Source: Marispirochaeta sp. (GTDB lineage Bacteria; Spirochaetota; Spirochaetia; JC444; Marispirochaetaceae). Taken from it: 64,000 bases of DNA. Positions 2,981 to 59,874 of the stretch are shown here, piece after piece. The translations under genes were made by a program, and so were the position numbers. The stretch spans positions 480,001 through 544,000 of the forward strand of contig CAXXFF010000001.1 of assembly GCA_963676835.2 (NCBI GenBank), in the 5' to 3' direction. The notes beneath the pieces are model-generated. The model made no database searches and was not told the DNA's origin. It saw nothing but the letters and a program-made list of their open reading frames with translations. Position 1 is the first letter of the stretch; every line of letters starts with the position of its first letter.

Positions 2981-2992
2981 CTGAAACAGGAA

Positions 2993-3868
2993 ATGAGAAG
3001 CATTGCCCTCATTCTTATCATACTTTCCGCCCATTCGCTGCTGCAGGCCCTGCCGGAATACCCCCGCATAGAGCAACTAAACTTCCGGGATCCCCTTTAC
3101 CGGCAGCTGGAGGATTTTGTTTCAGATTTTCATAAATCCTCCGCCCGGGGCGAGACTCTGCCGAATCTGCTCTTTTTTCGCCATACCCTGACAGAAGAAA
3201 CGGATCTTTTTTCCCTGGCAAGCCGCTGCGGCCTTACCTATGACTCCCTTGCAACCCTGAATGGATACACCCGGAATACGCCGGTAAAAGCCGGTACCGA
3301 ACTGCTGATCCCCAGTGTTCCGGGAATCTTTACTCCCATAAGGGCACGGAACGACCTGGACCGCTTTATTGCGGCATCACCACGAAGCGGAGGCCAATCC
3401 TGCACCCCCTTCGGGGATGGGGAATACCTTTATTACCCCGGAGAGCGCTTCAACAGCGTGGAGAGGGCCTTTTTTCTGGGGGTATTCCTGGGATTTCCCC
3501 TGCGTGACGGGGTAGTAAGTTCCCCCTACGGTGTACGTACCGACCCTTTTACGGGGCACAAGGCCTTCCACCACGGAGTGGATCTGGCGGCACCGCTGGG
3601 TTCGGAAGTTCTTGCAGCCCGGGCGGGGACCGTCGTTTTTTCTGGAAACGATGCAGTCTACGGCAACTATCTTATCATTTCCCACGAAAACGGGTATCGT
3701 ACACTCTACGGGCACCTAAAAAACGCGCTGGTGAGATTGAATCAGCATGTGGTATTGGGTATGATTATAGGAGAAGTGGGCGTAACCGGACAGACTACCG
3801 GGCCGCACCTGCATTTTGAAGTCTTGAAGGATGGAGTTACCAGAGATCCGTCTGAATATATCCATTAA
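2993..3868 (+). CDS. M23 family metallopeptidase with LysM-like domain
   Basis: HHGVD, YGHL and TGPHLHFE M23 motifs; signal peptide; LysM-like segment DLFSLASRCGLTYDSLATLNG. Confidence 0.9.
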   Translation: MRSIALILIILSAHSLLQALPEYPRIEQLNFRDPLYRQLEDFVSDFHKSSARGETLPNLLFFRHTLTEETDLFSLASRCGLTYDSLATLNGYTRNTPVKAGTELLIPSVPGIFTPIRARNDLDRFIAASPRSGGQSCTPFGDGEYLYYPGERFNSVERAFFLGVFLGFPLRDGVVSSPYGVRTDPFTGHKAFHHGVDLAAPLGSEVLAARAGTVVFSGNDAVYGNYLIISHENGYRTLYGHLKNALVRLNQHVVLGMIIGEVGVTGQTTGPHLHFEVLKDGVTRDPSEYIH

Positions 3869-4965: not shown

Positions 4966-5001
4966 CGTCCCCACAAGATCAATTCTCTTCCCTGATCTCT
5001 C

Positions 5002-5030
5002 TTGACAAAAGCCATACGCCCTCCTACTGT
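5002..5030 (+). promoter_or_regulatory. sigma70 promoter of the PBP1A gene, likely leaderless
   Basis: TTGACA-17bp-TACTGT ending 5 nt before ATG 5036; no SD. Confidence 0.7.
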
Positions 5031-5035
5031 AGCCT

Positions 5036-42275: not shown

Positions 42276-43658
42276 CTACTTCATGGTGCGGGCAGCCTCT
42301 TCCAGGGCGGCCACCAGCTCTTCGGTGGAGGGAATTATGGAAGGATATTTCATCTCTCCGTTGATATAGATACAGGGAAGACAGGGTATCTCCTGATACT
42401 GAATTCTGGCTATATCACCGGGGGTGTTGTACTGAAACACCTGCATCTCTATGGCGTCTTTAAGAATTTCCTCTGCAGATTCCGCTGAAGCAAGCATGTA
42501 GGTACAGGCAGCGCAGGCCTTGGGATCGAGGAGAAAAACCTCCATCAAGGGCTTTTCCAGGGAAGAATAGTCCGGCAGACGCACCTGTATATTTGCGAAA
42601 CTGCCTCCGGTGGAGTATTTCTTTACAATATCCCTGATTGCATTTCGTTCCTGTACCGCCTGGGCTACGCCTACTGCATTTTCAGGAGGTACATCGTAGG
42701 GCATGTCGCAACCCGGAGCTATAATCAGATTCTTTGTAAGAGAGAGTCCCGCACCTTCGATCCTGTCCATGAGATCAATGGTAAACTTCATGTTATCCAT
42801 CTGGTTTCCGAAGAGCATGACCGTTGTAAGGGGAATGTTTCCTCCAAGTACAATATTGTACTTGTCGGTAATGGTTTTTGCCTCGATCATGTTAACATTT
42901 TCATCCACCGCAATGGCATCAGGCGCGGTACGGCACATATTTTCTATGTTGAAGATGGCATTGCCGCAGACAAAGAGAGAACTGAAGGCCTTGCGGCTGC
43001 GGATATGATCAAAAAGCCGGGTGTAGGGTTCCAGAAAAAACTGCTCAAAATGCTTCGGAGAGATCTGTGACATAAGCGGATCAACAGGAACAATCACGTC
43101 CATGCCCTCATCGATATAGTAATCCGCCATGGCAATGGCAATATCCGTTGTGTAGGCAATAATCTTATGGATATATTCAGGCGCCTTGACCAGATTCATG
43201 AAAAGCTTCATCCCCCTCAGGTGAGAAGCTAGGGTCAGGGGACCGCAGAACAGACCATAGAGGGCGGTAGTCTCACCGACGGCCTCTTTAAACCGGCGCA
43301 TCACATCCCAGACCATGGGCAGACGGCCCTCATCCTTTCCAGGAATCTTTGTCGGAATCTCATCGGTTTTTTCTAATGGATGACTCACCACCGAGGGCAG
43401 ATTGTTCTCTATCCAGGCAAGTTCGCAACCGAGAATCTCTGCTTCAAGCTGCAGATCAAACATAACGGTCTGACCGTCGGGACTGTAAAGACGGTTAACC
43501 TCCATAAGGGATTCAAACAGTTTATCCGGATCCTGAAGCACCTCTATGGCGTTGTATCCTCTGGTTTTTCCCGCATGGATGCCCGCATAAGGAACCCATG
43601 GCGGACGTTCCACCTCTTCGTGACGGAGTACTTTATATATAAGCTCTTTACCGTTCAT
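42276..43658 (-). CDS. MtaA/UroD-family methylcobamide methyltransferase (MT2-like) fused to a C-terminal thioredoxin-like domain
   Basis: DLQLEAEILGC, GPLTLA, FVCGN, GNIP, APGCD; C-terminus CAACTYM...PCIYING; ATG 43658 with CAGGAG SD. Confidence 0.85.
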   Translation of the reverse strand: MNGKELIYKVLRHEEVERPPWVPYAGIHAGKTRGYNAIEVLQDPDKLFESLMEVNRLYSPDGQTVMFDLQLEAEILGCELAWIENNLPSVVSHPLEKTDEIPTKIPGKDEGRLPMVWDVMRRFKEAVGETTALYGLFCGPLTLASHLRGMKLFMNLVKAPEYIHKIIAYTTDIAIAMADYYIDEGMDVIVPVDPLMSQISPKHFEQFFLEPYTRLFDHIRSRKAFSSLFVCGNAIFNIENMCRTAPDAIAVDENVNMIEAKTITDKYNIVLGGNIPLTTVMLFGNQMDNMKFTIDLMDRIEGAGLSLTKNLIIAPGCDMPYDVPPENAVGVAQAVQERNAIRDIVKKYSTGGSFANIQVRLPDYSSLEKPLMEVFLLDPKACAACTYMLASAESAEEILKDAIEMQVFQYNTPGDIARIQYQEIPCLPCIYINGEMKYPSIIPSTEELVAALEEAARTMK

Positions 43659-43680
43659 AGCATAATCTCCTGCTCTGGTA

Positions 43681-44352
43681 TTAAAAATATTGCTCCATCC
43701 CCATAACTTCTCCGGGTGGCAGAATGATAATATCTTCCGACTCTTCAAAGAGAAGCATCCGCTCAAACAGACTTCCCCGGACAGAGCGCTCCTCAAATTC
43801 AAGGGCGAACTCATCTGCAAACCCTTGAGAAATCTCCCGGTACTTTTCCATTCCGTATGCCCCGGTATCAAGCAGCATGATCCTTCTGTAATGGGTAAGG
43901 ATCATCCCCATATACTCCCTGGCCTGCTCTTCGCCGTAGCGCTCTTTGTACGCCGGATATTCAAGGAGATGGCACTGCCCTTCTGCGGACTCAATAAAGC
44001 CTTTTGTCAGGTAGAGGGTTCCCTGTTCCTCTTCCGTGGCTTCACGGAACTGCCTGTGGGAACCGAAAAAAAGACCTATACAGTCATGCACCCGGGGAAA
44101 AACAAGCTCTTTGTCCGCAGAAGTGAGCCCGACAACACTGTTTGAACAGAGTCCGATACCGAAAATAATCCGTCTGATTTCCGCCGGGGCAGTGTCTATG
44201 GTTTCCTGCAGATAGCTGTTCATCTCTTCCTGACGGCTGTGTTTTTCAAAGGGAACAACATGAACCATCATCTCCGGTGGAATGAGTTTTCCGTATTCGT
44301 ACACTACAGTCTGGCAGATAACCACCATGGTATCGGCAGGGGGAGTATTCAT
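43681..44352 (-). CDS. DUF1638 family protein
   Basis: ICQTV, GLCSN, HDCI, LYLTKG, YGEEQA...HYRRIMLLDTG pattern typical of DUF1638. Confidence 0.75.
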   Translation of the reverse strand: MNTPPADTMVVICQTVVYEYGKLIPPEMMVHVVPFEKHSRQEEMNSYLQETIDTAPAEIRRIIFGIGLCSNSVVGLTSADKELVFPRVHDCIGLFFGSHRQFREATEEEQGTLYLTKGFIESAEGQCHLLEYPAYKERYGEEQAREYMGMILTHYRRIMLLDTGAYGMEKYREISQGFADEFALEFEERSVRGSLFERMLLFEESEDIIILPPGEVMGMEQYF

Positions 44353-44401: not shown

Positions 44402-45100
44402 TCAGGCGTTCAGGGCGCCGAGAATAATCGGCTCCTGACTGCCTCCGGCAGCCCCGCGTTCCATAAGCTGGTTGCAGAGATGCACACATTCACCGGCGGT
44501 ATTTGAGTACCCGTCGGCACTTATCATCTGCGTCCACTGGGGAGTAACCGGCCCTCCGCCGAGAATTACCGAATACTTATCCCGGATCCCCATAGCTTTA
44601 AGGGTCTCAATAAGCTCTTTCTGGTAGGGAAGAGAGGTGGTAATAAGGGTTGAGCAGGCAATTATATCCGCCTCTTCCCTCACTGCAGTATCAATAAACT
44701 GCTTTACTCCTACATCAATTCCCAGATCGACGACCTTGAAGCCGTTGGCGGAAAGCACCGCCTTGACCAGGTTCTTTCCGATATCATGGTGATCCCCGGC
44801 CATTACTCCCAGAATGATAGTCCCGGACTCGGCACCGTCGCCTCCGCGTTTGCGGATTTCCGCAAGAAGAATATTCATTGCCTCAGTGGCCGCCTCACCG
44901 CCGAGCATCAGCTCCGGAAGAAAGGCTTCTCCGTCCTCAAACTGCTGGCCCATAAGATCCATGGCAGTCTGAATCCCCTGTTTGATTACCGTCAGGGGCT
45001 CCAATCCGGCAGCCAGACTCTCTTCTGCAGCCTTTGCGGCATCTTCAGCCTCGCCTTCCATAACAGCGTTATACAGTTTCTTGATTATTTCATCTGACAT
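44402..45100 (-). CDS. Methyltransferase-cognate corrinoid protein (MtmC/MttC-like)
   Basis: Cap domain FLPELML; B12-binding DHHDIGKNLV (DxHxxG), DLGIDV, GGGPVT. Confidence 0.92.
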   Translation of the reverse strand: MSDEIIKKLYNAVMEGEAEDAAKAAEESLAAGLEPLTVIKQGIQTAMDLMGQQFEDGEAFLPELMLGGEAATEAMNILLAEIRKRGGDGAESGTIILGVMAGDHHDIGKNLVKAVLSANGFKVVDLGIDVGVKQFIDTAVREEADIIACSTLITTSLPYQKELIETLKAMGIRDKYSVILGGGPVTPQWTQMISADGYSNTAGECVHLCNQLMERGAAGGSQEPIILGALNA

Positions 45101-45156: not shown

Positions 45157-46536
45157 TTAAGCCAGGGGAAATCCGCTTTTAACGGCCTCTTCCCGTACCT
45201 GGTCATATACCTTCTCCGCCTCCGGCAGGGGCCGGAAATTCTTCAGATCCCAGACCTCTTCCACGGGCTTTCCAATATCCGGCGTTTTGATCTGATCCTC
45301 GTATTTGGGGGCGAAGGTTTTCGCAAGCTCGTTCACAGATTCCAGGGACATTCCCGATGCAGCATGGGCAACTTCAGCACACCAGCGGCACTCAAGGGGA
45401 GAAAGATAGTCATTGAACTTTCCTCCCGCTGCCCGGGGACCGGTACTGAAAGCGGCACCTGACGCGGCAATAATGGAAACTCCAACCAGGGTTTCGTACA
45501 TAAGGCCCGGTGTTCCCGGTCCGCTTACCTGGTTTGCAATACCGTGGGAGCAGATATGGGTGTTTCTGCTCAGGGCCTGGTGGGTAACACTGAGAGCCCA
45601 GAGTCCATCCCGGTTTACATTGGAGAGATAGCGGATATCGTAGAGTTCTCCACCGCCGACGGTGGAAAAGAGCACTGCATACTGAAGAAGACCTGCAGCG
45701 ATACTTGAGATGATAGCCCCTTCAGGGGTTCCCGGCATTCCACCGATCATTCCCGGAGAACCGGCAAATATCATTCCATCGACTTCAAGGGAATGGACTA
45801 CCTTGTGAAGAGTCTGATTATTGATCTTCAGCTCAGAAGGATAGAGAATCAGCGAGAGATCGGTATTATAGAAACCATCCTTTGCGCCATAGCAGAACTG
45901 ACCGTATTCGGTAACCGCGGAAATATTACCGATTCCCGGCATACCTTCCCGTCCGGCCTTTTTGCGGATAACCCGGTGCATCTTGGCCTGCTCATAGGTT
46001 AGCAGGGTTTCCGAAGGATCATTGGGAAGGGCTTCAAGTCCGTTGATGGTACACATGGATCCGCCTTCCAGAAGGTCAACCTCAAGCTGACGGGCAATAC
46101 CTTCAGTAAGCAGAGGCCATTTATCTTCCGAGATAGTTATACCCAGAGAAGCTCCGAAAAGCATGGGTCTGGGATCCTCGGGAACCCGGCTTTTCATAAC
46201 CCGCTTGTCCGGTCCGAAACCGAGGGTTACTTCCGAAGGGGCCAGATGAAGGGCGCTTTTAAGTTCGTCTTCACTGATGCGTATTATTCTCTCCCGGGCT
46301 TCGTTATACATACCCAGTTCCAGGGCCAGCTCAAATCCAGCCTGGAAAAACCTGTCTGCCAGCTCCATGTTGGTGTTTACAGGATTCTCCCGGTCTACAC
46401 TCTTCTGAAGCTCATACTTCTGCAGCATTTTCTTTACCGCCTGGGGGATCTTTTTCAGGTCCCAGTCCCTGGCACTGCAGTACTCTCCCTCACGGGAACG
46501 GCGTAAAATCTCTATCAAATCCGGTTTCTGTTTCAC
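45157..46536 (-). CDS. MtmB-family (monomethylamine methyltransferase-like) protein without pyrrolysine
   Basis: Full-length similarity to recalled MtmB motifs (GE.C...DWDL.KIP, FQAGFE, AGR.GM, ELKI, GP.T, ASG, E.R...EVA); no in-frame TAG; GTG start with AAGGAG SD. Confidence 0.88.
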   Translation of the reverse strand: MKQKPDLIEILRRSREGEYCSARDWDLKKIPQAVKKMLQKYELQKSVDRENPVNTNMELADRFFQAGFELALELGMYNEARERIIRISEDELKSALHLAPSEVTLGFGPDKRVMKSRVPEDPRPMLFGASLGITISEDKWPLLTEGIARQLEVDLLEGGSMCTINGLEALPNDPSETLLTYEQAKMHRVIRKKAGREGMPGIGNISAVTEYGQFCYGAKDGFYNTDLSLILYPSELKINNQTLHKVVHSLEVDGMIFAGSPGMIGGMPGTPEGAIISSIAAGLLQYAVLFSTVGGGELYDIRYLSNVNRDGLWALSVTHQALSRNTHICSHGIANQVSGPGTPGLMYETLVGVSIIAASGAAFSTGPRAAGGKFNDYLSPLECRWCAEVAHAASGMSLESVNELAKTFAPKYEDQIKTPDIGKPVEEVWDLKNFRPLPEAEKVYDQVREEAVKSGFPLA

Positions 46537-46638
46537 AGTCTACTCCTTATAAAACGTGATCATACAGACCTGTCACTGTCTGGTTGAATTAGTGTTTTAG
46601 AAAGAAGGCAGTTATACTAAGTTCGTGAAATCGCCATT

Positions 46639-46688
46639 CAAGCAGCTTGGTTTTAGACTTGCACCAGTTGCAAGGTTTCATTTGCCTG
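46639..46688 (-). promoter_or_regulatory. Conserved leader element copy A (candidate cis-regulatory RNA)
   Basis: CAGGCA-AATGAAAC-CTTGC-AACTGGT-GCAAG-TCTAAAACCAAGC-TGCTTG; near-copy at 53642-53690. Confidence 0.55.
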
Positions 46689-46806
46689 TGATTAAAATGC
46701 TTTCACTATAACCACAATCTTTTTTTCCGGCCCTTACCTGAAAGTATGGTACAGAAGGTACGGAACATTCCAATCTCTTTTACTGCTTTCCTCCTCCCGT
46801 TCTCCC

Positions 46807-48690
46807 TTATATCCCCCGGGGAATATCAAAATACATATGCGCCATCAGCCTCCGGCTGAAACCTTTATCAAAGGAAAGTTCCAGATAATCCAGACTCTCC
46901 CTCAGCTTTCCTGTACGGCGGCGAAAATCCCCGGACAGGGTATAATAGACCGCACCCCGCTGGGAGGTGTTCCCGGAAGGAATCACCCGGCCCTTAAGCT
47001 CTGCAGGCAGAAGCCCGATCTGAAATGCGCTCTCAGGATCAAGGGCACTGCCGAAACCGCCTGCAAGATAGACCATCTCAACATCTGTTACCGCCATGTT
47101 CCGGCAATTGAGCAGGGTCTCTATTCCGGCAGCAACCGCACCCTTGGCCAGTTGAACCTCCCTGAGATCCTTCTGGGAAAAATAAACCGGCGAACCATGG
47201 GCCGATTCCGATGCAGGTGAAAGGAGAAATACCTCCTCACCGTCTATAGTTGTCCGGCGGGATTTCAGCTCATCTCCGGTAGATGACGAAAGCTTATCCA
47301 CTGCCAGAAAACGGCCTTTGCCGTCAACCAGGCCTTCCCGTACAAGAAGGGCGGCTATGTCGACGATACCGCTGCCGCAGATACCGGAAGGAGCTCCTCC
47401 TCCAATGCAGCCAGTTTTCAGACGGCCTGTATCCGCTTCAAAAACAACACTGTAAACCGCACCGGCTATACTGCCGGTCCCGCAGGCAATATGAGCCCCT
47501 TCAAAGGCCGGACCCGCCGCGGTGGCACAGGAAACAAGCGCATCCCTGCTGCCCAGAACAATTTCTCCATTGGTGCCGATATCCACAAAAAGAGCGGTCT
47601 CTTCCTGCATATCCATACCAACCGCGGCAATCCCGACGGTAATATCCGCACCGATGTAGGCGGAACGTCCCGGAACAAGCCTGGTAACCATTTTACCGAA
47701 AGGGCTGCTGCCCAGGGGACCGGTTCCTTCTGCAAAATGCAGTGCCTCGGTAAAAACCGGCACATAGGGCGTCTGGGCTATCCCCAGGGGATACACTCCG
47801 GCAAAAAGGTGCAGCATACTGGTGTTGCCTGCCAGAACACAGGAATTCACCTTTTCCGGTCTGATTCCATTTTTTATGCAGAGATCTTCCATCATCTCCC
47901 CAATCTGAAGAGTGATGGAATCCTGCAGCTCCTTAAGCCCTTCCACTGAATCTGCAGCATGGGAAATCCGGGTAATTACGTCGGCACCGTAGATTCCCTG
48001 CCGGTTCAGACCCGCCCGCCGGTCAATCTCCTTACCGCTGCTGGCATCAACCAGACTGACAACAACCGATGTAGTTCCTATATCTACTGCAAAGGACCAG
48101 AGGGCTGCGGAGGTATCCCCGGATTCAATATCCAAAACCCTGTTTCCGTCCAGAATCAAAGTAACCCTTCTCTCCCGCAGCTGCACAAGCCGGGAAAGAC
48201 TATCTGCAGCTGAGCCGGAAAAAACCATATCCTCTATCCCTGAAACCTTCCGTACCTGGTCAAAAAGGTTCAGCTGGCTCTTCCCGTCCCTCTCCTCAAG
48301 GAGAATCATCTGCTTGCGGACAAGAGGGCTAACTACCCCCCCGAAAGCCACAGGGGAGACCAGCACTGCTGCCTCTCCGGAACTCTGCAGCTCAACCGTA
48401 AGATCCCCGGATGGAAACAGGCGGCATGCCAGCCGCATCCCGCTTTTAAGCTCCTGTTCCGAAAGAGACTGCTTTTCTTCCGGACCGGGTTCACGACAGT
48501 CACCGGATAAAATCCGAACACGGCATTTTCCACAGGTTCCCTTCCCGCCGCAGGGAGCGGCCATTTCCCGGCCGGAGCGGCTTTTTCTCAAAACCTCGAG
48601 CAGACTCGGTCCGGGTGGAAAATCAACAAACTCGTTACCGGGAATAATTTCAAGTCTGAACTCCCCGGAATTCACCTCTCCTGCAGCCAC
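46807..48690 (-). CDS. ASKHA-domain corrinoid reductive activator (RACo/DUF4445 type) with N-terminal 2Fe-2S domain
   Basis: CGGKGTCGKC...RLAC, DIGTTS, GADVITRI, DIGTNGE, AAGPAFEG, GICGSG, LAGGFG. Confidence 0.92.
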   Translation of the reverse strand: MAAGEVNSGEFRLEIIPGNEFVDFPPGPSLLEVLRKSRSGREMAAPCGGKGTCGKCRVRILSGDCREPGPEEKQSLSEQELKSGMRLACRLFPSGDLTVELQSSGEAAVLVSPVAFGGVVSPLVRKQMILLEERDGKSQLNLFDQVRKVSGIEDMVFSGSAADSLSRLVQLRERRVTLILDGNRVLDIESGDTSAALWSFAVDIGTTSVVVSLVDASSGKEIDRRAGLNRQGIYGADVITRISHAADSVEGLKELQDSITLQIGEMMEDLCIKNGIRPEKVNSCVLAGNTSMLHLFAGVYPLGIAQTPYVPVFTEALHFAEGTGPLGSSPFGKMVTRLVPGRSAYIGADITVGIAAVGMDMQEETALFVDIGTNGEIVLGSRDALVSCATAAGPAFEGAHIACGTGSIAGAVYSVVFEADTGRLKTGCIGGGAPSGICGSGIVDIAALLVREGLVDGKGRFLAVDKLSSSTGDELKSRRTTIDGEEVFLLSPASESAHGSPVYFSQKDLREVQLAKGAVAAGIETLLNCRNMAVTDVEMVYLAGGFGSALDPESAFQIGLLPAELKGRVIPSGNTSQRGAVYYTLSGDFRRRTGKLRESLDYLELSFDKGFSRRLMAHMYFDIPRGI

Positions 48691-48710
48691 TTCGACGAAT
48701 GCCCCGGTAA

Positions 48711-49652
48711 CTACCGTTCTTCCCTGAAGTAGGAGACACCCAGTGCCTGGGGAGCTTTGCTCACGCTGCTGCGGCGCACTGCATCCATAATCAGAATCAG
48801 AATGGTCATGCCGTAGGGAAGAACATCCAGCACATACTGGGATACGGGCAGATCAAATTTCTGCAGCCGGAAACCGATTATATCCAGACCGCCGAAAAAG
48901 AGAGCGCCTAAAAGAAGGCGGTAGGGATTCCATTTTGAAAAGATAACCAGCGCAACAGCGATCCACCCCCTGCCGGCAACAAGTGAATCCTGCCAGGCCG
49001 GAACATATACGAGAGAAAGGTAGCCTCCGGCAAAACCGCACAGGCCGCCGCCAACCAGGAGGTGAACATACTTGTAGAGCCCCACGGGAATACCCAGAGC
49101 GTCCGCAGCAGCGGGATTTTCCCCCACGATGCGGAGATTGAGTCCTGTCCTGGTGGTGTACAGATAGAGGCCGGATACAAGAACCAGCAGAAAGCTTATA
49201 TAGATGAGGATATCGTGGTTGAAGAAAATCTCCCCCAGATAGGGAATATCACCAAGTACCGGAAGCTTCAGGGGCCGGAAAACCTGCATAATACCATCCG
49301 GGGCCTTCTGGCCCACCATGGAAGCTCCTGCAAATCCTGCAAAACCTGTTCCGAACAAAGTAAGGGTCAGACCGGTTACAATCTGGTTGGCCCTCATACT
49401 GATGGTAAGAAAACCGAAAATTAGTGCACCGGTCATTCCCGCAAGTACAGAACCGGCAACAGCCATAAGAGCCGAGCCGGACTGAAGACCGAAGTAGAAG
49501 CCCATGACAGCGCCCATATACATCATGCCTTCAACCCCCAGGTTGAGACTGCCACTCTCTTCGCTGATCAGCTCACCGAGGCCGGCTATCAGAAGAGGAG
49601 TTGCAGACACCACCGCGGCGGCCAGAAAGTTTACTACCCAGGCACTATCCAT
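48711..49652 (-). CDS. Nucleoside-type (CUT2) ABC transporter permease
   Basis: GELISEESGSLNLGVEGMM, GENPAAA, GRGWIAVA. Confidence 0.9.
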   Translation of the reverse strand: MDSAWVVNFLAAAVVSATPLLIAGLGELISEESGSLNLGVEGMMYMGAVMGFYFGLQSGSALMAVAGSVLAGMTGALIFGFLTISMRANQIVTGLTLTLFGTGFAGFAGASMVGQKAPDGIMQVFRPLKLPVLGDIPYLGEIFFNHDILIYISFLLVLVSGLYLYTTRTGLNLRIVGENPAAADALGIPVGLYKYVHLLVGGGLCGFAGGYLSLVYVPAWQDSLVAGRGWIAVALVIFSKWNPYRLLLGALFFGGLDIIGFRLQKFDLPVSQYVLDVLPYGMTILILIMDAVRRSSVSKAPQALGVSYFREER

Positions 49653-50773
49653 TACCTTTCTCCTTCCTCCGGGGTTCCCTCATCTTCAGTCTCTGTTACC
49701 GGTGAAACAGCAGCATGCCTGCCGGAGGAGAAACTGAAGTGAACCTTGTAGCGGATAAAAAACTCGCTGCCCAGAACAAAGAACAGAATAAGCCCCTGGA
49801 GCAGATCTGCAGCTGCCTGGGGAATATGATACACAGTCTGAATAAAGGAACCGCCTTCCACCATGACAGCGAAAAAGAACGAGGCAATCAGAATAGTCAC
49901 CGCGTTCAGCTGGGCGAGCCAGGCGATTATTATGGCGGTATACCCCACCCCGTTGCTGACATCCACACTCAGGGTACTGTTAACTCCGGAAACCTGGATC
50001 ATGCCCACAAGACCGCAGATACCGCCGCTGGCAAACAGGGTTGCTCCGATAATCAGGGGAACGTTCATGCCGGCATAGCGGGCAGTCTCTTCACTTTCAC
50101 CAATAACCCGAATCTCATAGCCTTTTTTAGTGTAGCGTATAAACAGAAAGAGCCCTGCCACCAGCACCGGCAACAACAGCAATCCGATATGCACCCCGAA
50201 AAGATCGGGTAGCTGGCCGTTTTCCGCCAGATTAGGGATTTTCGGATAGCCGTATGCCTCTTTATCCCGCCAGGCGACATACTGAAGCCAGGTTATCCAC
50301 TTAAGGGCAACATAATTCAGCATCAGTGTAAGGATTGTTTCGTTGGCTTTAAAGCGTATTTTAAATACCGCGGGAAAGAGCGCCCAGATGCCGCCGGAAA
50401 ACACCGCCACAAGGGCCATGAACAGCAGAAGCAGCGGCCTCGGCATCTCTGGAAATGTGAGGGCCGCCCAGGTTGCCGCAAAGGCTCCCATCATAATCTG
50501 CCCTTCGCCGCCGATATTCCAGAACTTCATTCTGAAAGCAAGGCTTATCCCCAAAGAGGCGATGGCCAGGGGAATGGTACGCACCAGGGTTTCCCGGAAG
50601 CGGTAGCCGCTTCCAAGGCCTCCGTCCAGCATGGATCGGTACACAGAAAAGGGGTTGTACCCCATTAACGCAAGAAGGATTCCCGCCGCTGCCAGGGCGG
50701 CCAATACCGCCAGCAACCGAATCCTGAGGCGGGACTTGAGTGGTGTCTCTGCAATCTGGGTTAATCGGAACAC
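49652..50773 (-). CDS. Nucleoside-type (CUT2) ABC transporter permease
   Basis: WNIGGEGQ, NETILTLMLNY, ARYAG, GYTAIIIAWL; GTG 50773 behind GGGGAG (track start 50887 is likely too long). Confidence 0.9.
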   Translation of the reverse strand: MFRLTQIAETPLKSRLRIRLLAVLAALAAAGILLALMGYNPFSVYRSMLDGGLGSGYRFRETLVRTIPLAIASLGISLAFRMKFWNIGGEGQIMMGAFAATWAALTFPEMPRPLLLLFMALVAVFSGGIWALFPAVFKIRFKANETILTLMLNYVALKWITWLQYVAWRDKEAYGYPKIPNLAENGQLPDLFGVHIGLLLLPVLVAGLFLFIRYTKKGYEIRVIGESEETARYAGMNVPLIIGATLFASGGICGLVGMIQVSGVNSTLSVDVSNGVGYTAIIIAWLAQLNAVTILIASFFFAVMVEGGSFIQTVYHIPQAAADLLQGLILFFVLGSEFFIRYKVHFSFSSGRHAAVSPVTETEDEGTPEEGER

Positions 50774-52284
50774 GATTTGTACTCCCCTAATTGTGACATA
50801 AGCAGTCCAAGTTCCTCTTTCCCCGTTTCGGCGGCAGAAAGAATACCCGATACCTCGCCGCAGTACAGCACCATTATTCTGTCGCACACTTCAAGGAGCA
50901 GATCGAGATCTTCAGCCACAAGCAGCACACCAGCACCGGCGGCTTTCTGCTCATTCAGCATATCGATAACCGTATGGGTTACCCCGAGGTCCAGACCGCG
51001 CACCGGATAGGCTGCAATAAGAACATCCGGCCGGGTATCGATTTCCCGGCCCAGCAGCACTTTCTGCATATTACCCCCGGATAAAACCCGGATAGGCCGG
51101 TTAATCCCGGGGTGCATTATACTCAGGGAGTCTGTCAGTTCCTCCGATTTTTTCTTTCCGAAGGCACGGTCAAAGAGCATCCCCTTCCGGCTTCTGTACT
51201 GGCGGAGCATGATATTGTCCACCAGGTCCATGCCGGTGGCGAGCCCCATACCCGTCCGGTCTTCCGGAATGTATGCCATGCTGATTTCGGGATCGGTTAG
51301 AATCTGCCGGGTTGATTTACTGCTTATATCAGTACCGCAGACAGAGATACGTCCTGCCTGAATCTTCTGCAGACCCAGAAGTGCATGGCAGAGCTGTTTC
51401 TGGCCGCTGCCGGAGACACCGGCTACACCGAGAATTTCTGAACCATGCAGGGTAAAGCTTATATTCTTAAGCTCCCTTGACGCCTCTTTATCTTCGATAC
51501 TGAGGTTTTCCACCTCAAGAACTACCCGCCCCGGGGCGGTTTCCACCCGGGGGTACTCCATATTCATGGATTTACCCACCATAAGCTCTGCCAGAAGCTT
51601 CTGACTCACCTCGGAGGTATTAACCGTTTTTACCAGCCGTCCTTTTCTAAGCACGCTGACCCGGTCGCTTATTTCCATAACCTCGTTGAGCTTATGGGTA
51701 ATGATGATGGTTGTCTTTCCCTGCATTTTCATTTTACGGATAATGCAGAAAAGAACCTCTGTCTCCTGAGGGGTAAGCACCGTGGTGGGCTCATCGAGAA
51801 TCAGAATATCCGCCCCCCGGTAGAGAACCTTCAGAATTTCTACTGTCTGCTTTTCCCCGACACCCATGTCTCGGATTTTTCTGTCCAGATCTACACAAAG
51901 ACCGGTATCATCGGAAAGACTTTGTATTCTCTCCTTTATTGCCCGGGGTTTGAGGAACAGGGAGCCCTTTGTTCCGGCGCAGATATTTTCCCAGGAGCTT
52001 AAGGCATCTATTAGTTTGAAATGCTGATAGATCATACCGATACCGGCGGCAATTGAATCCTGGGGAGACCGGAACCTCTGTTCCTTTCCCCGGAGATGTA
52101 TACTCCCCGAATCGGGAGCATAGATACCGGTAAGGATATTCATGAGGGTACTTTTACCTGCACCGTTTTCACCCAGCACGGCATGAACCTCACCTTCCCG
52201 GACAGATAGATCTATTCTGTCATTGGCTTTGAGACTGCCGAATTCCTTGGTAATTGATTCCATGCGGATAAATTCACCGGACAC
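50761..52284 (-). CDS. CUT2-family ABC ATPase with two NBDs (NupA/YufO-like)
   Basis: GENGAGKSTLM, QHFKL, LDEPT, LSGGNMQK, PVRGLD. Confidence 0.93.
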   Translation of the reverse strand: MSGEFIRMESITKEFGSLKANDRIDLSVREGEVHAVLGENGAGKSTLMNILTGIYAPDSGSIHLRGKEQRFRSPQDSIAAGIGMIYQHFKLIDALSSWENICAGTKGSLFLKPRAIKERIQSLSDDTGLCVDLDRKIRDMGVGEKQTVEILKVLYRGADILILDEPTTVLTPQETEVLFCIIRKMKMQGKTTIIITHKLNEVMEISDRVSVLRKGRLVKTVNTSEVSQKLLAELMVGKSMNMEYPRVETAPGRVVLEVENLSIEDKEASRELKNISFTLHGSEILGVAGVSGSGQKQLCHALLGLQKIQAGRISVCGTDISSKSTRQILTDPEISMAYIPEDRTGMGLATGMDLVDNIMLRQYRSRKGMLFDRAFGKKKSEELTDSLSIMHPGINRPIRVLSGGNMQKVLLGREIDTRPDVLIAAYPVRGLDLGVTHTVIDMLNEQKAAGAGVLLVAEDLDLLLEVCDRIMVLYCGEVSGILSAAETGKEELGLLMSQLGEYKSCSD

Positions 52285-52327
52285 CGTAACTGTTCCCCTC
52301 TTTTTCCTTTATTTCAGAACATCGTAC

Positions 52328-52370
52328 AAAAAGAAAGTCTGCAGAACCCCCGGATATACAGGGGCTCCGC
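52328..52370 (-). terminator. Hairpin/attenuator after the BMP gene
   Basis: Minus strand GCGGAGCCCC...GGGGTTCTGC then AGACTTTCTTTTT. Confidence 0.55.
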
Positions 52371-52380
52371 ATTCTATGCA

Positions 52381-53457
52381 TTATTCTGCAATCTTACCGA
52401 TTACACCTTCAACAAGCCAGTTCATGCCGAGAAGTGCACCATCATCGGGTGTTGTACCTGCGGGTACAACGGTTTCACCCTCATTATTTTTAAGAGGACC
52501 CGCAAAGACCACAAGAGAACCGTCGGCGATTTTCTTCTGGGCTGCTGCAACAGCTTCCGCTGCTCCGGCAGGAGCATTCTTGCCCATTTCAGCTACACGG
52601 ACAATATCCTCGTCCATGCCGCCCCAGTAGTTCACCGCTTCCCAGGTTCCATTCATAACTTCCTGAACAGCCTGAATATAGTAGGGCTCCCAGTTCCAGT
52701 AGGCAGAGGTCAGACAGGCATCGGGTGCTGCATCATTCATGTCTGCATGGTAGCCGATACCCCATACTCCCCGGGCTTCTGCAGCCTGAAGGTTGGCAGG
52801 TCCGGTCTGGTGCTGGGCAATGATATCGCATCCATTGTCAATAAGAGCATTGGCAGCTTCCTTCTCTTTAGGAGGATCATTCCAGTTGTGAGTCCAGATA
52901 ACTTCTACTGTGGCATCGGGATTAACACTGCGCACACCGAGGGTAAAGGCATTGATTCCCCGTACAACCTCGGGAATCTCAAAAGCGGCAAGGTAGCCGA
53001 TCTTATTGCTTTCAGTCTTCATCCCGGCGACAATACCGGACAGGTAACGGGCCTGATACATACGTCCAAGATAGTTGATCGCATTGTCCGCCTGCTTGTA
53101 TCCGCCGCAGTGGAAGAATTTGACATCCGGATTATCCGCGGCAACTTCCAGCATATAGTCCATATAGCCGAAACTTGTTGCAAAGATCATCTTCGCGCCC
53201 TGGGAAATCATGTCACGCATAACCTTTGCAGACTCCTGAGTATTGGGAACACTCTCTTTATAGAGTGTTTTTACTCCAAGCTCTTTCTCAATAGCCAGAC
53301 GACCTCTGTCATGCTGCTGTGTCCAGCCGCCGTCACTTATCGGACCGGTAAAGACAAACCCTACAGTGAACTGCTCTTCCTGCTCACTCTGACCGCCGGC
53401 ATAAGCGAAAGCTGTCAGAAGAGCCAGGCCCAAAAGAAGGACCAGTAATTTTTTCAT
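52381..53457 (-). CDS. BMP-family ABC substrate-binding protein (purine/nucleoside-binding type)
   Basis: GPISDGGWTQQHDRGR, ATSFGY, RYLSGIVAG, PEVVRGINAF, DIIAQH. Confidence 0.92.
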   Translation of the reverse strand: MKKLLVLLLGLALLTAFAYAGGQSEQEEQFTVGFVFTGPISDGGWTQQHDRGRLAIEKELGVKTLYKESVPNTQESAKVMRDMISQGAKMIFATSFGYMDYMLEVAADNPDVKFFHCGGYKQADNAINYLGRMYQARYLSGIVAGMKTESNKIGYLAAFEIPEVVRGINAFTLGVRSVNPDATVEVIWTHNWNDPPKEKEAANALIDNGCDIIAQHQTGPANLQAAEARGVWGIGYHADMNDAAPDACLTSAYWNWEPYYIQAVQEVMNGTWEAVNYWGGMDEDIVRVAEMGKNAPAGAAEAVAAAQKKIADGSLVVFAGPLKNNEGETVVPAGTTPDDGALLGMNWLVEGVIGKIAE

Positions 53458-53641
53458 ACCTAACTCCTAAGAATAGTATTTATGGAAACTCTGCCGCACT
53501 GCAGAATTTTCATCCCTGACTGAGGAGAATCGAAGTTAAGAGTGAGTATAACAGGTAGACTATCAATCTCTTCACATCCGTTCCCTGATGGAAACTGATA
53601 CAAATAGATTCAATTTTTATGCACACACACTGCAGCGTGAG

Positions 53642-53690
53642 CAAGCACGGTCTGTTTTAAACTTGCGATTGCAAGGTATCTTGTTACCTG
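53642..53690 (-). promoter_or_regulatory. Conserved leader element copy B (candidate cis-regulatory RNA)
   Basis: CAGGTA-ACAAGATAC-CTTGC-AATC-GCAAG-TTTAAAACAGACCG-TGCTTG; TGGTACATT extended -10 lies 18 nt upstream. Confidence 0.55.
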
Positions 53691-54138
53691 CCGGATACAT
53701 AAAGAACCAATGTACCAGTAGATTATTTTGAAGAAGTATTTCCAACACCATGCAATCCCTGAAGGATCTATGGTATTTTTCCGTGAATACAACTCTTCGC
53801 AAATAAGTTGCAAAATATGAACCAACTTCAGCCAGGCTGCTGTACCATTCCGGTTCCTACACTAATAATACCATACTATTTAATTGATATACAAACAGTT
53901 ATTACACAGGTAAAACCAATAAATTTTTATCTTAAATATTTTTCCCCGGCCACAACCTGACAGAGACAGCAAAAAAACATACAACAATGTACCCAATCGC
54001 CATAAGGTTTTACAATTTTGTAGATAATTTTACAAAATGATGTAATCAGGCAAGCTGCATATTTCTCCGGTGTAAAAGGGCAAAAGACTATTGCGGGGCC
54101 TGGCAGTCCAACCATGAAAAGCCCTTACTCTGCCTCTC

Positions 54139-57100
54139 CTACTTTGACTGCAGATAGCCGTTCAGAAGATCCAGCGCCTTTTCATACTCAATATCTTCAA
54201 TCTCTTTCTGTATTTCCAGAAAAACCTCTGCATCAGCTGTCCCCTTCATACGCAGTACAAGCTCTTCAACCACATCTCCCGCCCGGGAATCATCCCCCAG
54301 TAAGAGCGCCTTAAGGTCACCTGCAAGATCTGAAATATCCTCTGGAGAGGTTTCAGCCGCTGTATCAGGGGGACTCTCTTCAACAAGATGGTTGTTTATC
54401 TCAGTTACTATGGTATCGAGGATATTCCCAATCTCGTTCAGCAATGCCGCTGTTTGATCCTGTTCGTCACCCTTAAGCAGACTTTCCAACCCCCGGGCCT
54501 TTTCCTGGAGTTCCGAAGCGCCTACGGTACCGGCTATCCCTTTCAGAGTATGGGCAATCCTGACAGCCTCTTCCATCGACCCGGAGTTTATGGCTTCCTG
54601 TATTCTTACGTGTGCTCCCCCCTGATTGGATGCAAACTGCCGCAGCAGCTTTTTATACCTGCCGATATTCCCTCCGGTTCTCTCGATTCCAGAAGAAACG
54701 TTTATTCCCGGAAGAACCGGAATGGAACCATCGGGACTATCAGCGGCTCCATTCCGGCCGGACAGGGAGGCTATATACTCCCCGGGCAGCACTCTTTTCC
54801 CCGGGGTAATCCATTTATACAGCACCGAATAGAGAGCCTCAGGATCAACCGGCTTTGTTACATAATCGTTCATGCCGATCTTCAGCACCTTTTCGGAAAC
54901 ACCACTCATGGCATCAGCAGTCATGGCTATTATGGGAAGATCAGCAAAACGTACATCTTCACGGATCAGTTCGGTTGCAGTATAGCCGTCCATAACCGGC
55001 ATCTGCAGGTCCATAAGCACAAGATCAAAGGATTCACCCTCTGCGGAAGCAAGGACCGCATCAACCGCCTCTTTTCCATCCCTGGCAAGGGATACAACAA
55101 AGCCTTCTCCTTCGAGCAGTTCCGTAGCCACCTGCTGATTAAACTCATTATCTTCAACCAGGAGCAGCCGGGAACCTCTGACCTCATCGAAATTATCCGG
55201 AATAACAATATCAGCTCCCCTTCGGGGGGTCCTTACCGCAACATCGAAGCCGAAAACATCCATAATAGTATTAAAAAGCACCGACGGACTTACCGGTTTT
55301 ACCAGAAACGCATCGATACCAATATCCTCAGCCAGCATCATATACTCTTCCCTGCCATAGCCCGTTACCAGGATCACTTTTGTATATTTTCCCAGTTCAG
55401 GATTGGATTTGATAATTCCCGCGGCCTCAATACCATCCATATCGGGCATACGGAGATCCATCAGCACCAGGGGTATGCGCTTTTCGCCGGCAGAGTCTTC
55501 AAGAATCTCCAGAGCATCCACCGCTGATGTGGCGGTGGTAACCTCAAAACCGAATTCTTTGATAATATTGCGCATGGTACCAAGAGAGTTTTCATCATCA
55601 TCTACAATTAAGACCCTGAGACCTTTCAGATCCAGTCCGGGAGTCGCATACTTTTTATCCTTCCCGGCCTGTTCACTCTGGAGCCTGAATGGAAGTTTTA
55701 CCCAGAATGTACTGCCTTCTCCCGGAGCCGAAATAACACCGATCTCACCCCCCATTAACTCCGACAATTTCTTGCTTATGGCAAGTCCGAGACCGGTCCC
55801 TCCGTATTTTCGGGTTGTGGAGGTATCTGCCTGGGTAAAGGACTGAAAGAGCTTATCCTGCTGCTCCGGAGTCATACCAATACCGGTATCCCGTACACTG
55901 AAGCGGACCAGTACAGATTCTTCGTCTCTTTCAAGAATCTCAGCAGACACCAGAATATCGCCCTCTTTGGTAAACTTAACGGCATTACTACTCAGGTTCA
56001 GAAGGATCTGCCCGAGACGCAGAGGATCACCGATTAAGTAGGCAGGAAAATCCGGGGCAAGATCGAATTTCAGTTCAAGGCCCTTTTCATTGCATTTTAC
56101 CCCGATCATGCCAGCCAGGTTGTCCAGAACATCATCAAAGACAAAAGGCACCGTCTCTATTTCCAGTTTTCCCGCTTCAATCTTACTGAAATCAAGAATA
56201 TCGTTGATGATATTCAGCAATGATTTTGAAGACTGATCTATTTTATTCAGGTAGTCCCGCTGGCGGTGGGTAAGCTCGGTTTTCAGAGCAAGGTGGCTCA
56301 TTCCGATAATCGCATTCATGGGAGTCCGGATTTCGTGACTCATGTTGGCCAGAAAGTCACTTTTTATCCGGTTGGCAGCCTCTGCAGCCTCCTTGGCTTC
56401 CCACAGGGCGGTTTCTCCTTTTTTACGCTCCGTAATATCCTGCAGCCAGCCTAGAACCCCCTCTTCTCCCTCGTAGGTAATGGGAAGAAAGGTAATCAGG
56501 TAGTCCCGGATATCCCGGTTTATGTCTATCAGTTTTATTTCGTGGTTATCCAGCACTCCCGTCTCATGCATCTTCTCAATTACTTCCTGCCTGTCCTCAG
56601 GGTTCTGATATATTTTTATAGCAGGGTCTCCAATATCCAGGCCGAACATTTCGACGAATCTATGGTTGGTAAAGCGGAAAATCCCGTTAAAGGTAAATGC
56701 AACCCCCACAGGAGCATTATTCAGAATAAACTCCAGCTGGTCCCGGGCCCTTTTTATCTCGTTTTCCGCCCGCTTGCTTTCAGTAATATCTTCCAGTGTG
56801 CTGATTACATCATAGGGATAGCCACCTGAATGCACCGGGTTGAACAGTATTCTTAAAAATGCCTTTTTACCTCCGGTAACTGAAATGTACTCACCCTCAA
56901 ATTTGGAATTCTTCCCCGTAAGTGCCGTTGTTAAGGTCTGACGCATCTCCGGATCAACTATCTGCCTGGGAGCATTAAAGCCGAGCAGCTTCTCCATTGG
57001 TGCTCCCAGGTAATCTGCAGCAATGGAGTTACAATTAATAATGGTGCCTTCACTGTTGAAGTGAATAATGCCTATGGGAGAGTTTTCAACAATAATACGC

Positions 57101-59874
57101 AGCTGGGCTTCCCTTACCCGGATTTTTTCCTCATCCTGTTTTCGCCGGGTAATATCTGTAGATAAAACTAAAAGAGCATAGGGCTCTCCCCGGTCATCGC
57201 GAAGAAGCACTTTATTGGTCAGATAGGTATGGGGTGTACCGTCCGGATGAGGCGGCATCTGCCATTCAAAGCGGACATTTTCTCCACTTTCAATAATCTC
57301 CCGGTCCTTCTCCATTATAATACGGGCTGTTTCCTGAGGAAATATCTCGGCATCGGTGAACCCGAGAATCTTCTCCGACGAAAAACCGGTGGCTTGTTCA
57401 AAAAAGCTGTTGACCAGAAGATGCCGACCATCCAGGTCCTTGAGAACCACGGAACTGGGAAGGTTGTCGATAATTACCTGAAGCTGCTGCCGGCCGGCAC
57501 TGAGCTCTTCTTCAATCTTCTTCCGCTCCGTTATATCCTGATGGGAACCGTAGATTGAGGCGGGCGCTCCTTTTTCATTAAAACGAACATGGTAGCGCAC
57601 ATGGGAAATCTGAATTTCCCCGTCTGGAAGAACTACCCGATAGTCCAGCTCCCGTTCATAATCCTCATGTTCCTGATAAGCCTGGCCGATATTTTTTCTC
57701 AACAAGGCCCGGTCATCGGGATGACAAAAACGGCTCAGATACTTATCAACCGCTATTTCAGCGGATCCTTCTCCTTCAATACTGGTTCCAAGCAAATTCC
57801 ACAGCAGAGCGTCAAAAGTAAAGACCATGGAAGACAGATCGAGTTCAAAATAGCCAAGTTTGGATATCTTTGCTGTTTCGATTATGCGCTCTTCATTTCG
57901 TTTTACCGCAACCTCCATCTCCCGCCGCTGGGTGATATCTTCCCGTATGGCCACAAAATGGCTTATCTCTCCGTCGGGTTTTCGCACCGGGGCCAGGGTC
58001 ATAAACTCCCAGAAGGGTTCCCCGTTTTTTCTGTGGTTGCGAAACTCTCCATACCAGGGGTGACCGGCCTGGAGTTCCGCTTTCATAACCTTATAGTAGT
58101 GCTCCGAGATATCACCGTATTTCAGATAACCCGCATCCTGCCCAAGAACTTCAGCTTCTATATAGCCCGTAAGATCTGTGTAGGCAGGATTAACATATTC
58201 AATAGTACCGGTTGCATCGGTTATCATAACCGCCATTGGACTTGCAGCAATGGCCTCGGAAAGCTTGTGCAGCTCCGCCTCCGATTTATATCGCGCAGTT
58301 ACATCCTGAAAACTCCAAACCCGGCCTATTATCTCATTTCCCAGACGCTGGGGCCGGGAATAGCGGTGCAGAATCCTGCCGTCCTTCAGATGAAAAATCG
58401 AAGAGTCTTCTGCCGCCGGCTTGCTGTAGAGATCATTCACTGATTTTATGAATTCATCCTCACCAAGAACCTTTTTGATACAGGCACCCAGCAGCACTTT
58501 ATCCTCACCGCTTTTAGCAAGGGATTCATCTACCTGCCAAATCTCCAGAAAGCGACGGTTATAGGAGCTTATATTCTGGTTTAAATCGACAACAAGAATG
58601 CCGTCGGTGGTGGATTCAAGGGTGGCAGAAAGCCTGGATGTCCGTTCATCAATATTTGCAACCATTCTGTCCAGAGCCAGGGAAAGCTGACCGATTTCAT
58701 CCCGCCGTGCCAATGCTCTCCAGTGATGCCGCTCCCCCCGGGAGACGTCATCTGCCATGGCAATAATTTTTTTGAGGGGACGGGTAAAGGTGGTACCCAT
58801 AAATACCGCAAACAGAACAATACAGGCGGTAAGCATCATGGCCACCACCGCCGCCTGATTCAGCAGGGTAATAACCGGCTGCTCCACTTCAGCTTCATCA
58901 ATCTCCGCAATAATCGCCCAGGTTATTCCTCCGGGAAGGATAAGAGGAGAATAGCTGGTAAGCACCTTATTTCCTCTATAATCAATTATTATGCCGTCAC
59001 CGGAATTCCATTCCAATGCATTTCGAACAGCTTCCGTATCAACACCATTGACCTCAACTGTTCCGGCGAGGGAAGCCTGGACAGAATGGTTATCCGGATC
59101 AAGGTAGGAATCGGTTCTCATGAGCTTATCAGGCCCTACAAGGTAGGTCTCGGCGGTGCCCCCCATACCGGTACGTCCCTGCATAATGCGGTTAAGGCTC
59201 TCAAGATTCAGCTGAACCGCCAGGACAGCAAGTATCTCGCCATTCTCCGACAGAAGAGGAGTACCCATAAACATGGCGGGTACGTTTCCCGAAGGAAGAT
59301 ACAAAGCCATGTCGGACCAGGAAATTCCACCCGACTCTCTCACCGCCTTCCAGACTTTATGAAGACCGCTGTTTTGCATACTGCCCTGGCTTACATCATC
59401 TCCCGGATTTCCTTCCCTGGTTGCTGAATAGAGAAGATGTCCATGCTCCGGACAAAGAAGAAATGCGTTGTAGAAATCATAGGTACTGATAATATATTCA
59501 AGAAATTTTCCATTTTCCCGGTGAATAGTATAGTACTCATCAGACCGGTCAAGAGGTGTTTCCGATCCCAATTCATGGGTTTCAAGAAAGGTGCTTATTT
59601 TAATAAATGTATTGCGTACATCCGTACTGTTTGCCAGAGCTTTAAGATCGCGGGTACAATCCATGAAATAGTCAAGAACCTGTTCTCTTTTTATGGACTT
59701 TACGGCTTTAAGTTTATACAGGGCATCATCAAGCATGTAATTGTCCATCTTCATTAGAAGGACAGTTACAGCAATAAAGAGGGGAATTAACCCGGAAAAG
59801 AGAAAGGCTCCGATCAGCTTGGGCCTGATTTTGATATTCTTAAGTAAAAACCTTTCTATCCCCGACTTTTGCAT
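54139..59874 (-). CDS. Hybrid sensor histidine kinase: TM-Cache-TM-HAMP-6xPAS-HisKA-HATPase-REC-REC-Hpt
   Basis: YLVGPD Cache motif, [12 protein letters not shown], six PAS starts, [19 protein letters not shown], two MDLxMP receivers, AHTLKG Hpt. Confidence 0.92.

Follow-up and report, generated by a model that had tools for sequence, protein, structure and literature searches.

The preQ1-I riboswitch, whose ligand is a modified purine-like base, consists of a short hairpin followed by an A-rich strand, and depends on pairing between its conserved loop and the 3' tail, an H-type pseudoknot. The NMT1 motif, or xanthine-I riboswitch, is a small aptamer in which two helices surround a conserved internal loop, and it sits in the leaders of purine-oxidation and transporter genes. 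The purine (adenine) ON riboswitches of pbuE and ydhL are three-way junctions with a loop-loop contact and act via a terminator. Bacterial homologues of the methyltransferase MtmB that are free of pyrrolysine are widespread. MtqB of Methanococcoides, which serves in the use of tetramethylammonium and choline, is reported as the first function of any pyrrolysine-free MtmB, and the other such homologues are called uncharacterised in the same paper; it is the only function of a pyrrolysine-free MtmB that we found in print (PMC13044021).

The element described here occurs twice within the 64-kb stretch of DNA that was analysed (the window), once ahead of a gene for an MtmB-like protein and once ahead of a transporter operon. 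As an RNA it folds into the helices P1 and P2, which flank an asymmetric internal loop; variation is tolerated in the part of P2 distal to that loop. Between P1 and P2 lie two strands that are near-invariant across three phyla, 5'-GNNAC-3' and 5'-UNUAAAAC-3'. The original prediction, made from the window alone, had read this internal loop as GAWAC / UYUAAAAC, a reading that is upheld in relatives and generalises to GNNAC / UNUAAAAC.

The element is about the size of preQ1-I and likewise has a hairpin directly before an A-rich strand (UNUAAAAC here). However, its P2 loop varies both in sequence and in length (4 to about 29 nt), and it requires a second helix, P1, together with the GNNAC strand. 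Membership of preQ1-I was rejected on the conserved-loop requirement and on the lack of an Rfam match. With preQ1-I, NMT1 is the nearest architecture, since both NMT1 and the element have two helices flanking a conserved internal loop. A further likeness to NMT1 lies in the neighbouring genes, which here include xanthine-dehydrogenase-like enzymes and a purine-type binding protein, yet the loop sequences, the phyla and the operon type (corrinoid methyltransferase here) are different, and Rfam NMT1 gave no match at E <= 10 at the motif sites searched. With pbuE and ydhL the element shares a predicted behaviour, in that substrate would stabilise the aptamer against a competing helix and turn a transporter or catabolic operon on, although the aptamer here is a two-helix internal loop and no terminator was seen.

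Rfam 15 (4227 models) was searched with each family's gathering score as the threshold. No family reached that score anywhere in the 64-kb window, in keeping with the original prediction, which had recognised no known class in the element. At E <= 10 the only matches near copy A were PYLIS_3 (15.3 bits; gathering score 38) and a lncRNA fragment, and among 11 motif-bearing loci (54,259 bases) 2 weak matches were obtained, neither of them at the motif. The PYLIS_3 match (RF02510, 46540-46660, E 0.92) overlaps the 3' part of copy A and was treated as chance. The match stands ahead of a gene of a methylamine-methyltransferase family, but it is in a leader and not after a UAG codon, and the gene is without an in-frame UAG. 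Cobalamin and THF riboswitches were considered because of the pathway, and neither was found by Rfam. No published description of such an RNA element was found in the literature searched, although one may exist in subscription journals or in PMC manuscripts outside that search. With the comparative evidence given below, we hold it to be highly probable that the element is genuine, and that it represents a conserved and structured cis-regulatory RNA absent from Rfam.

The two copies and the operons they precede

Read on the minus strand, copy A (46688..46639) is CAGGCA-AAUGAAAC-CUUGC-AACUGGU-GCAAG-UCUAAAACCAAGC-UGCUUG and copy B (53690..53642) is CAGGUA-ACAAGAUAC-CUUGC-AAUC-GCAAG-UUUAAAACAGACCG-UGCUUG. 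Both readings agree with the original prediction, which placed the copies at 46639-46688 and 53642-53690. The P2 loop lengths of 7 and 4 nt that it claimed were the same on re-reading, as were the distances from the end of each -10-like hexamer to the element (TATAGT to copy A, 16 nt; TACATT to copy B, 18 nt). The parts of the two copies are as follows.

46637..46692, minus strand: copy A, whole covariance-model match (65.6 bits, E 1.4e-12)
46688-46683, minus strand: copy A, P1 5' strand, CAGGCA
46682-46675, minus strand: copy A, J1/2, AAUGAAAC
46674-46670, minus strand: copy A, P2 5' strand, CUUGC
46669-46663, minus strand: copy A, P2 loop
46662-46658, minus strand: copy A, P2 3' strand, GCAAG
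46657-46645, minus strand: copy A, J2/1, UCUAAAACCAAGC
46644-46639, minus strand: copy A, P1 3' strand, UGCUUG
53640..53694, minus strand: copy B, whole element (48.4 bits, E 2e-8; 58.6 bits with model R2, see below)
53690-53685, minus strand: copy B, P1 5' strand, CAGGUA
53684-53676, minus strand: copy B, J1/2, ACAAGAUAC
53675-53671, minus strand: copy B, P2 5' strand, CUUGC
53670-53667, minus strand: copy B, P2 loop, AAUC
53666-53662, minus strand: copy B, P2 3' strand, GCAAG
53661-53648, minus strand: copy B, J2/1
53647-53642, minus strand: copy B, P1 3' strand, UGCUUG

The core common to both, CCTTGCAA-N(1-8)-GCAAGTYTAAAAC, occurs exactly twice in the 64-kb window (0/100 shuffles). A looser pattern, CTTGC-N(3-9)-GCAAGTYTAAAAC, is found 2 times in the 4,429,379-base genome, both on the gene strand, and its reversed control gave 0 matches in the same 4,429,379 bases. 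A covariance-model search, a step named in the original prediction, returned copies A and B as the sole matches in their own genome (4.4 Mb). When folded as a single sequence neither copy is better than its shuffles (z = +0.20, +0.01, +0.36, -0.91), so the proposed fold is without thermodynamic support and the case for the structure comes from comparison with relatives.

No intrinsic terminator was found in the leader of copy A or copy B, and a consensus promoter scan of the gene strand over 46400-54200 gave no site. Terminator-like predictions on the plus strand (46658-46674 and 53662-53675) are P2 read backwards and were set aside, as no plus-strand gene ends there; a plus-strand reading of P2 is likewise disfavoured by its G·U pairs, which favour the minus strand.

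Copy A lies in the leader of the MtmB-like gene, as had been claimed for it, and is separated from the GTG start by about 100 nt. For copy B, the distance to the gene downstream, which encodes a Bmp/PnrA-type binding protein, is about 180 nt. The genes of the two operons are listed below.

45157..46536, minus strand: MtmB-family methyltransferase, 459 aa, first gene after copy A (Pfam PF05369, E 1e-65)
44402..45100, minus strand: corrinoid (B12-binding) protein (Pfam PF02310, PF02607)
43681..44352, minus strand: DUF1638 protein (Pfam PF07796)
42276..43871, minus strand: MtaA/CmuA-like (URO-D family) methyltransferase (Pfam PF01208; NCBIfam TIGR01463 below cut-off)
52381..53457, minus strand: Bmp/PnrA-family substrate-binding protein, first gene after copy B (Pfam PF02608)
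50761-52284, minus strand: importer ABC ATPase (Pfam PF00005)
49652-50887 and 48711-49652, minus strand: two importer permeases (Pfam PF02653)
46807..48690, minus strand: RACo-type reductive activator of corrinoid proteins, last in the copy-B operon (Pfam PF14574, PF17651, PF00111)

The MtmB-family gene has its Shine-Dalgarno sequence, AAGGAG, at 46548-46543, and because its frame is without an in-frame stop it has no pyrrolysine codon. A PDB sequence search gave 3s99 (E 6e-86) and the atrazine-binding AtzT, 6pi5 (E 5e-83), as the nearest solved relatives of the Bmp/PnrA-family protein. As listed, the MtaA-like ORF is 531 aa long with a TTG start and shares about 190 nt with the DUF1638 ORF. 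The listed start is probably too far upstream on account of this overlap, and since the Pfam domain begins only at residue 75 the true start probably lies downstream.

Immediately upstream of copy B is a gene for a 1911-aa hybrid histidine kinase (window 54139-59874, minus strand) with dCache, HAMP, several PAS, HisKA/HATPase, two receiver domains and Hpt. Its position beside copy B is not kept in the relatives checked, and the upstream neighbour of copy B varies by genome (hybrid kinase, shorter PAS kinase, prismane protein, EAL protein or MscS). An inverted repeat, (GG)TACAT-N9-ATGTA(TC), abuts most B copies on their upstream side (53714-53710 and 53700-53696 of the window, minus strand), its 3' arm ending on the first base of the element. 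The repeat is also present in L088 (~735-752), L170, L171 and L172, whereas L087 and L085 have it in altered form or lack it; it may serve as an operator for a transcription factor or fold as an additional 7-bp RNA hairpin.

Distribution and architectures among relatives

The MtmB-like protein is patchily distributed, with a match in 5 of 41 related genomes, 3 of the 5 being at least 81% identical; 21 homologues were aligned. By organism label, the nearest relative of the window belongs to Marispirochaeta. Loci were collected from genomes (75 loci from 110 relatives) and from metagenomes (79 loci from 156 relatives), and the element was found in 7 Spirochaetia genomes, 4 Anaerolineales, 3 Verrucomicrobiota/Kiritimatiellae and 11 metagenome contigs, with a total of 28 distinct homologous sequences. 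These clades are incompletely independent, as the module may have moved between phyla.

A covariance model built from all ordinary-order copies (R2) gave 28 matches (25 distinct) in 930,510 bases from 100 sources, all at E <= 1.3e-6, and no further match in those bases up to E = 5. All 28 matches lie on the gene strand, upstream of an MtmB-like/corrinoid operon or a Bmp-ABC operon. When 151 Spirochaetia genomes were searched, the 7 that matched were the 7 carrying the module. Copies A and B were both obtained for these genomes, one B copy only on a second search. Five of these show two matches in that search; the second copy of G101 came from a separate search, and for G122 only the B copy was reported among the 151. 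Each of the 4 Anaerolineales genomes with the module has exactly one match, and 150 other genomes of the same class have 0.

Within the Spirochaetia the element is 5' of the MtmB-like gene in loci L008-L012 and L018, and it has this position also in L085-L088 and L103. In L085, L087 and L088/L103 the transporter is preceded by a second copy, some 7 kb upstream of the first, and the genomes behind L008, L010, L012 and L018 also carry a second copy before the transporter. No element was seen in the upstream regions read for MtmB-like genes of 59-72% identity in L013, L017, L089, L091-L093, L104 and L105. A wide list of regular expressions added nothing beyond the model matches. A loose descriptor (AC + 5-bp helix + [TG]AAAAC, in either order) was uninformative, giving 319 matches vs 244 in shuffled sequence, and a position-matrix scan for a permuted order was swamped by ordinary sites and left out of the evidence. 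As for gene content, Chloroflexota loci have two tandem MtmB-like paralogues after one corrinoid protein (L021 6004-7380 and 7505-8881; also L020, L100, L105 and L109) and the window has one.

In Spirochaetia the order of the element is P1 (about CAAGC/GCUUG), a J1/2 that ends in GNNAC, P2 (CUUGY...RCAAG, with loops of 4-12 nt), a J2/1 that begins with UNUAAAAC, and the 3' strand of P1. The Anaerolineales members (L019, L021 = L096, L022, L024, L098, L099, L101 and L102) have the same junction strands. Their P2 starts as CUUAAG/CUUAAG and extends as a 35-39-nt hairpin in which distal pairs covary, and their P1 is GCAU-U-GGA/UCC-GUGC. In five of these eight sequences the 5' half of the element overlaps the last ~8 codons of an upstream amidohydrolase (...YRTHWIKQP-stop), and this coding overlap confounds the invariance of the 5' half in those five. 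The same nucleotides in L019 and L022 sit after a real stop codon, in a degenerate duplicate of the amidohydrolase 3' end. That 3' end (...FRTHW...) is present twice there (L019 ~5000-5262, L022 ~5010-5270), the second, frame-broken copy holding the 5' half of the element, and it looks as if a short duplication moved the element out of the coding region.

The form found in Verrucomicrobiota/Kiritimatiellae (L014 = L090, L015 and L016) is represented by 3 distinct, closely similar sequences and reads UGUCAG-UUUAAAAC-[short hairpin]-(UG)GAAAC-CUGGCA, ending 8 nt before the AGGAGG and AUG of the corrinoid-protein gene. Here the equivalent of P2 (CUGGCA/UGUCAG vs CUUGCA/UGCAAG) is an open terminal helix that adjoins GAAAC and UUUAAAAC, and the helix equivalent to P1 is capped by a loop; the third P2 pair, U-A in the ordinary order, is G-C in this one. 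Judged from its sequence, the Verrucomicrobiota form keeps the internal loop of the other clades in circularly permuted order. A sigma-54 promoter was considered for the TGGCAC of this form and rejected, since the ribosome-binding site comes directly after it and the sequence offers no fitting GG-N10-GC spacing.

Small self-cleaving ribozymes often occur naturally in circularly permuted versions. The permuted order and the small conserved core between two helices would accordingly suit an RNA element of another kind, whether a new small self-cleaving ribozyme, an RNase or stability determinant, or the target of a trans-acting small RNA. We regard such an identity as quite improbable, since no Rfam 15 ribozyme family matches and the strict tie to one catabolic module, with its transporter and enzyme operons, points to pathway-specific regulation.

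Helices, covariation and strand

Helices were counted with the structure read off the model alignment, over 25 distinct S-type rows and 274 cells. In these rows 84.3% of cells are paired, compared with 27-43% when the partners are slid by 1-3 columns. The percentage paired, the number of double-sided changes (20 vs 8.9) and the covariation score were each reached by 0 of 500 shuffles. Both helices of the original prediction were borne out by the relatives. P2 is paired in 98.4% of its cells and contains compensatory changes, with pair 4 divided between G-C (16) and A-U (9) and pair 5 between C-G (10), A-U (6), U·G (4), U-A (3) and other (2). In P1 the sequence is swapped between clades and complementarity is retained. 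P1 is paired in 72.5% of cells in the all-clade alignment, a value that reflects an Anaerolineales 5' strand lying 1-2 columns out of register. The mean P1 duplex energy is -7.8 kcal/mol with cognate flanks vs -4.5 (sd 2.2) with shuffled 3' flanks, and cross pairs between Spirochaete and Anaerolineales strands give -4.0 to -5.3 kcal/mol.

Covariation, which the original prediction named as a check on the fold, is present for P2 across all clades but is weak when the Spirochaetia are taken alone. In that group 91.5% of cells are paired vs 24-47% when slid, yet the helices are conserved in sequence, the covariation score is reached by 36 of 500 shuffles and the changes in P1 are one-sided only. 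The count of independent compensatory events is small. In the Spirochaete A and B leaders the motif forms an island of conservation, with an identity of 0.75-0.78 vs 0.58-0.67 in the 60-nt flanks; the Anaerolineales are a closely related set with equally conserved flanks (0.75-0.82), and so the comparison is uninformative there.

On the sense strand, wobble pairs (G·U or U·G) account for 20 helix cells. The sense strand matters because the same cells would turn into A·C mismatches if the opposite strand, or DNA, were the functional form. The P2 segments fold as a hairpin in all 25 rows at lengths of 14-39 nt, and the variable length of P2, which had been put forward from the two copies as an argument for RNA, is thereby extended to this range among relatives.

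These observations bear on whether the site could instead be a DNA operator, in which a transcription factor near the promoter would recognise the inverted repeat CTTGC...GCAAG. The P2 arms of the window do form a perfect palindrome, each copy closely follows a -10-like hexamer, and with the TACAT-N9-ATGTA repeat upstream of several B copies some DNA-level control may coexist. However, the spacing of the arms ranges from 4 to about 29 nt, the G·U pairs are confined to the sense strand, the flanking strands GNNAC and UNUAAAAC are asymmetric, and the orientation is always that of the downstream gene. In addition, the permuted element of Verrucomicrobiota ends 8 nt before the ribosome-binding site, too close for a promoter to fit between them, and in Anaerolineales the element runs into the 3' end of the preceding gene, which has the same direction. 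The comparative data thus largely refute a DNA operator, which we find hardly credible, and the earlier preference for RNA over an operator of fixed spacing is sustained. A -35/-10 pair is ruled out by the 9-17 nt between TTGCAA and TAAAAC. A sigma-70 promoter or palindromic operator, for which a fixed spacing is required, was rejected because P2 spans 14-39 nt.

Proposed switch, expression platforms and ligand

The element is a structured 5' leader RNA on the sense strand with covarying helices and near-invariant unpaired strands, as expected of riboswitches in general. On these comparative grounds we lean towards reading it as a new riboswitch class that would act as a translational ON switch. 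The invariant loop, GNNAC / UNUAAAAC, would form the binding pocket, and the ligand would be the substrate that is imported for corrinoid-dependent demethylation, or a metabolite close to it. The bound fold would withdraw a strand of the aptamer that otherwise pairs with the ribosome-binding site, this strand being ACCUUG (P2, 5' side) for Spirochaetia and UCCGUG (P1, 3' side) for Anaerolineales, while Verrucomicrobiota would use the outer terminal helix. Ligand binding would then free the Shine-Dalgarno sequence and allow the importer and methyltransferase operons to be translated.

In all three leaders with the permuted form, both the Shine-Dalgarno sequence and the AUG fall inside a predicted hairpin, GCACU...AGUGC, and the 5' strand of this hairpin has 3 nt in common with the outer pairs of the terminal helix. 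The ribosome-binding site of the Anaerolineales, (C)ACGGAG or AUGGAG, is complementary to UCCGU(G), the 3' strand of P1, and the two are paired in the minimum-energy fold of L019. In the A leaders of the Spirochaetia loci L009, L010, L011 and L012 the Shine-Dalgarno region finds its best leader-wide partner in the 5' strand of P2 plus the loop, with 9-10 bp at -13.8 to -16.2 kcal/mol vs a leader median of about -3, and matching changes are present in the two sides of this pairing (UGUCCA with UGGAUA; UGUUCAU with AUGAAUA). The window's own copies have only weak complementarity between Shine-Dalgarno and anti-Shine-Dalgarno, about -5 kcal/mol. Overall, cognate pairing has a slight advantage (-8.6 vs -6.7 for non-cognate), the difference being small because CCUU/AAGG is common to all. 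As a hypothesis drawn from the folding models, the three predicted platforms fit an ON switch in which the folded aptamer, presumably with its ligand bound, would withhold the anti-Shine-Dalgarno strand.

The structural evidence would fit a protein site as well as an aptamer. A regulator encoded elsewhere could recognise GNNAC / UNUAAAAC in the structured leader RNA and control translation or mRNA stability; the element is small, and its poor single-sequence stability is something that a protein clamp could offset. No conserved regulator gene was found beside the element, however, the neighbourhoods of L014, L016 and L021 holding enzymes and transporters only, and none is kept next to it in the three phyla, which favours direct sensing. 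One and the same protein partner would also need to accompany the module in each of Spirochaetia, Chloroflexota and Verrucomicrobiota, and would have to be reconciled with three different predicted expression platforms on one core. Different platforms on one core are typical of riboswitch classes. For these reasons we think a protein partner, the main alternative to a riboswitch, unlikely.

The genes next to the module include TRZ/ATZ- or deaminase-like amidohydrolases (all below NCBIfam cut-offs) and xanthine-dehydrogenase-like molybdoenzymes, and in one locus (L014) an S-adenosylhomocysteine hydrolase. The coordinates of the flanking enzymes are 10837-14492 in L088, 253-2520 in L021, and 1614-3041 and 3605-5050 in L014. 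These neighbours hint at the catabolism of a methylated purine-like compound. The neighbouring genes, that of the binding protein related to 3s99 and AtzT among them, suggest, for ligand and substrate, a purine-like or triazine-like N-heterocycle with N-methyl groups. We propose tentatively, and with less confidence than for the switch itself, a new riboswitch class whose ligand would be the physiological substrate of the MtmB homologues that bacteria have without pyrrolysine; an N-methylated purine or some related N-heterocycle would be an example.

Should the element prove to be an aptamer, the pathway's substrate would be revealed by whatever compound binds to it, and screening a 50-nt RNA is far easier than rebuilding an oxygen-sensitive three-protein corrinoid system. 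It would be the first riboswitch known to govern corrinoid-dependent anaerobic demethylation, and a rare natural case of one aptamer in two circularly permuted topologies. A compact permuted aptamer would likewise join a short list of riboswitch architectures, and could provide a sensor part for methylated N-heterocycles.

Some further features of the leaders are recorded here. The copy-A leader contains a second CUAAAAC (46600-46594, minus strand), a duplicate of the conserved J2/1 strand. In the minimum-energy fold it pairs with a GUUUUA that lies just 5' of the AAGGAG ribosome-binding site, and the second CUAAAAC and the J2/1 strand could compete with each other. The leaders of L009, L010, L011 and L018 contain a GC-rich hairpin without a U-run after it (e.g. 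GGGGG-N6-CCCCC), 25-60 nt before the start of the MtmB-like gene, where the window has CAGAC-N8-GUCUG (at about 46581-46564).
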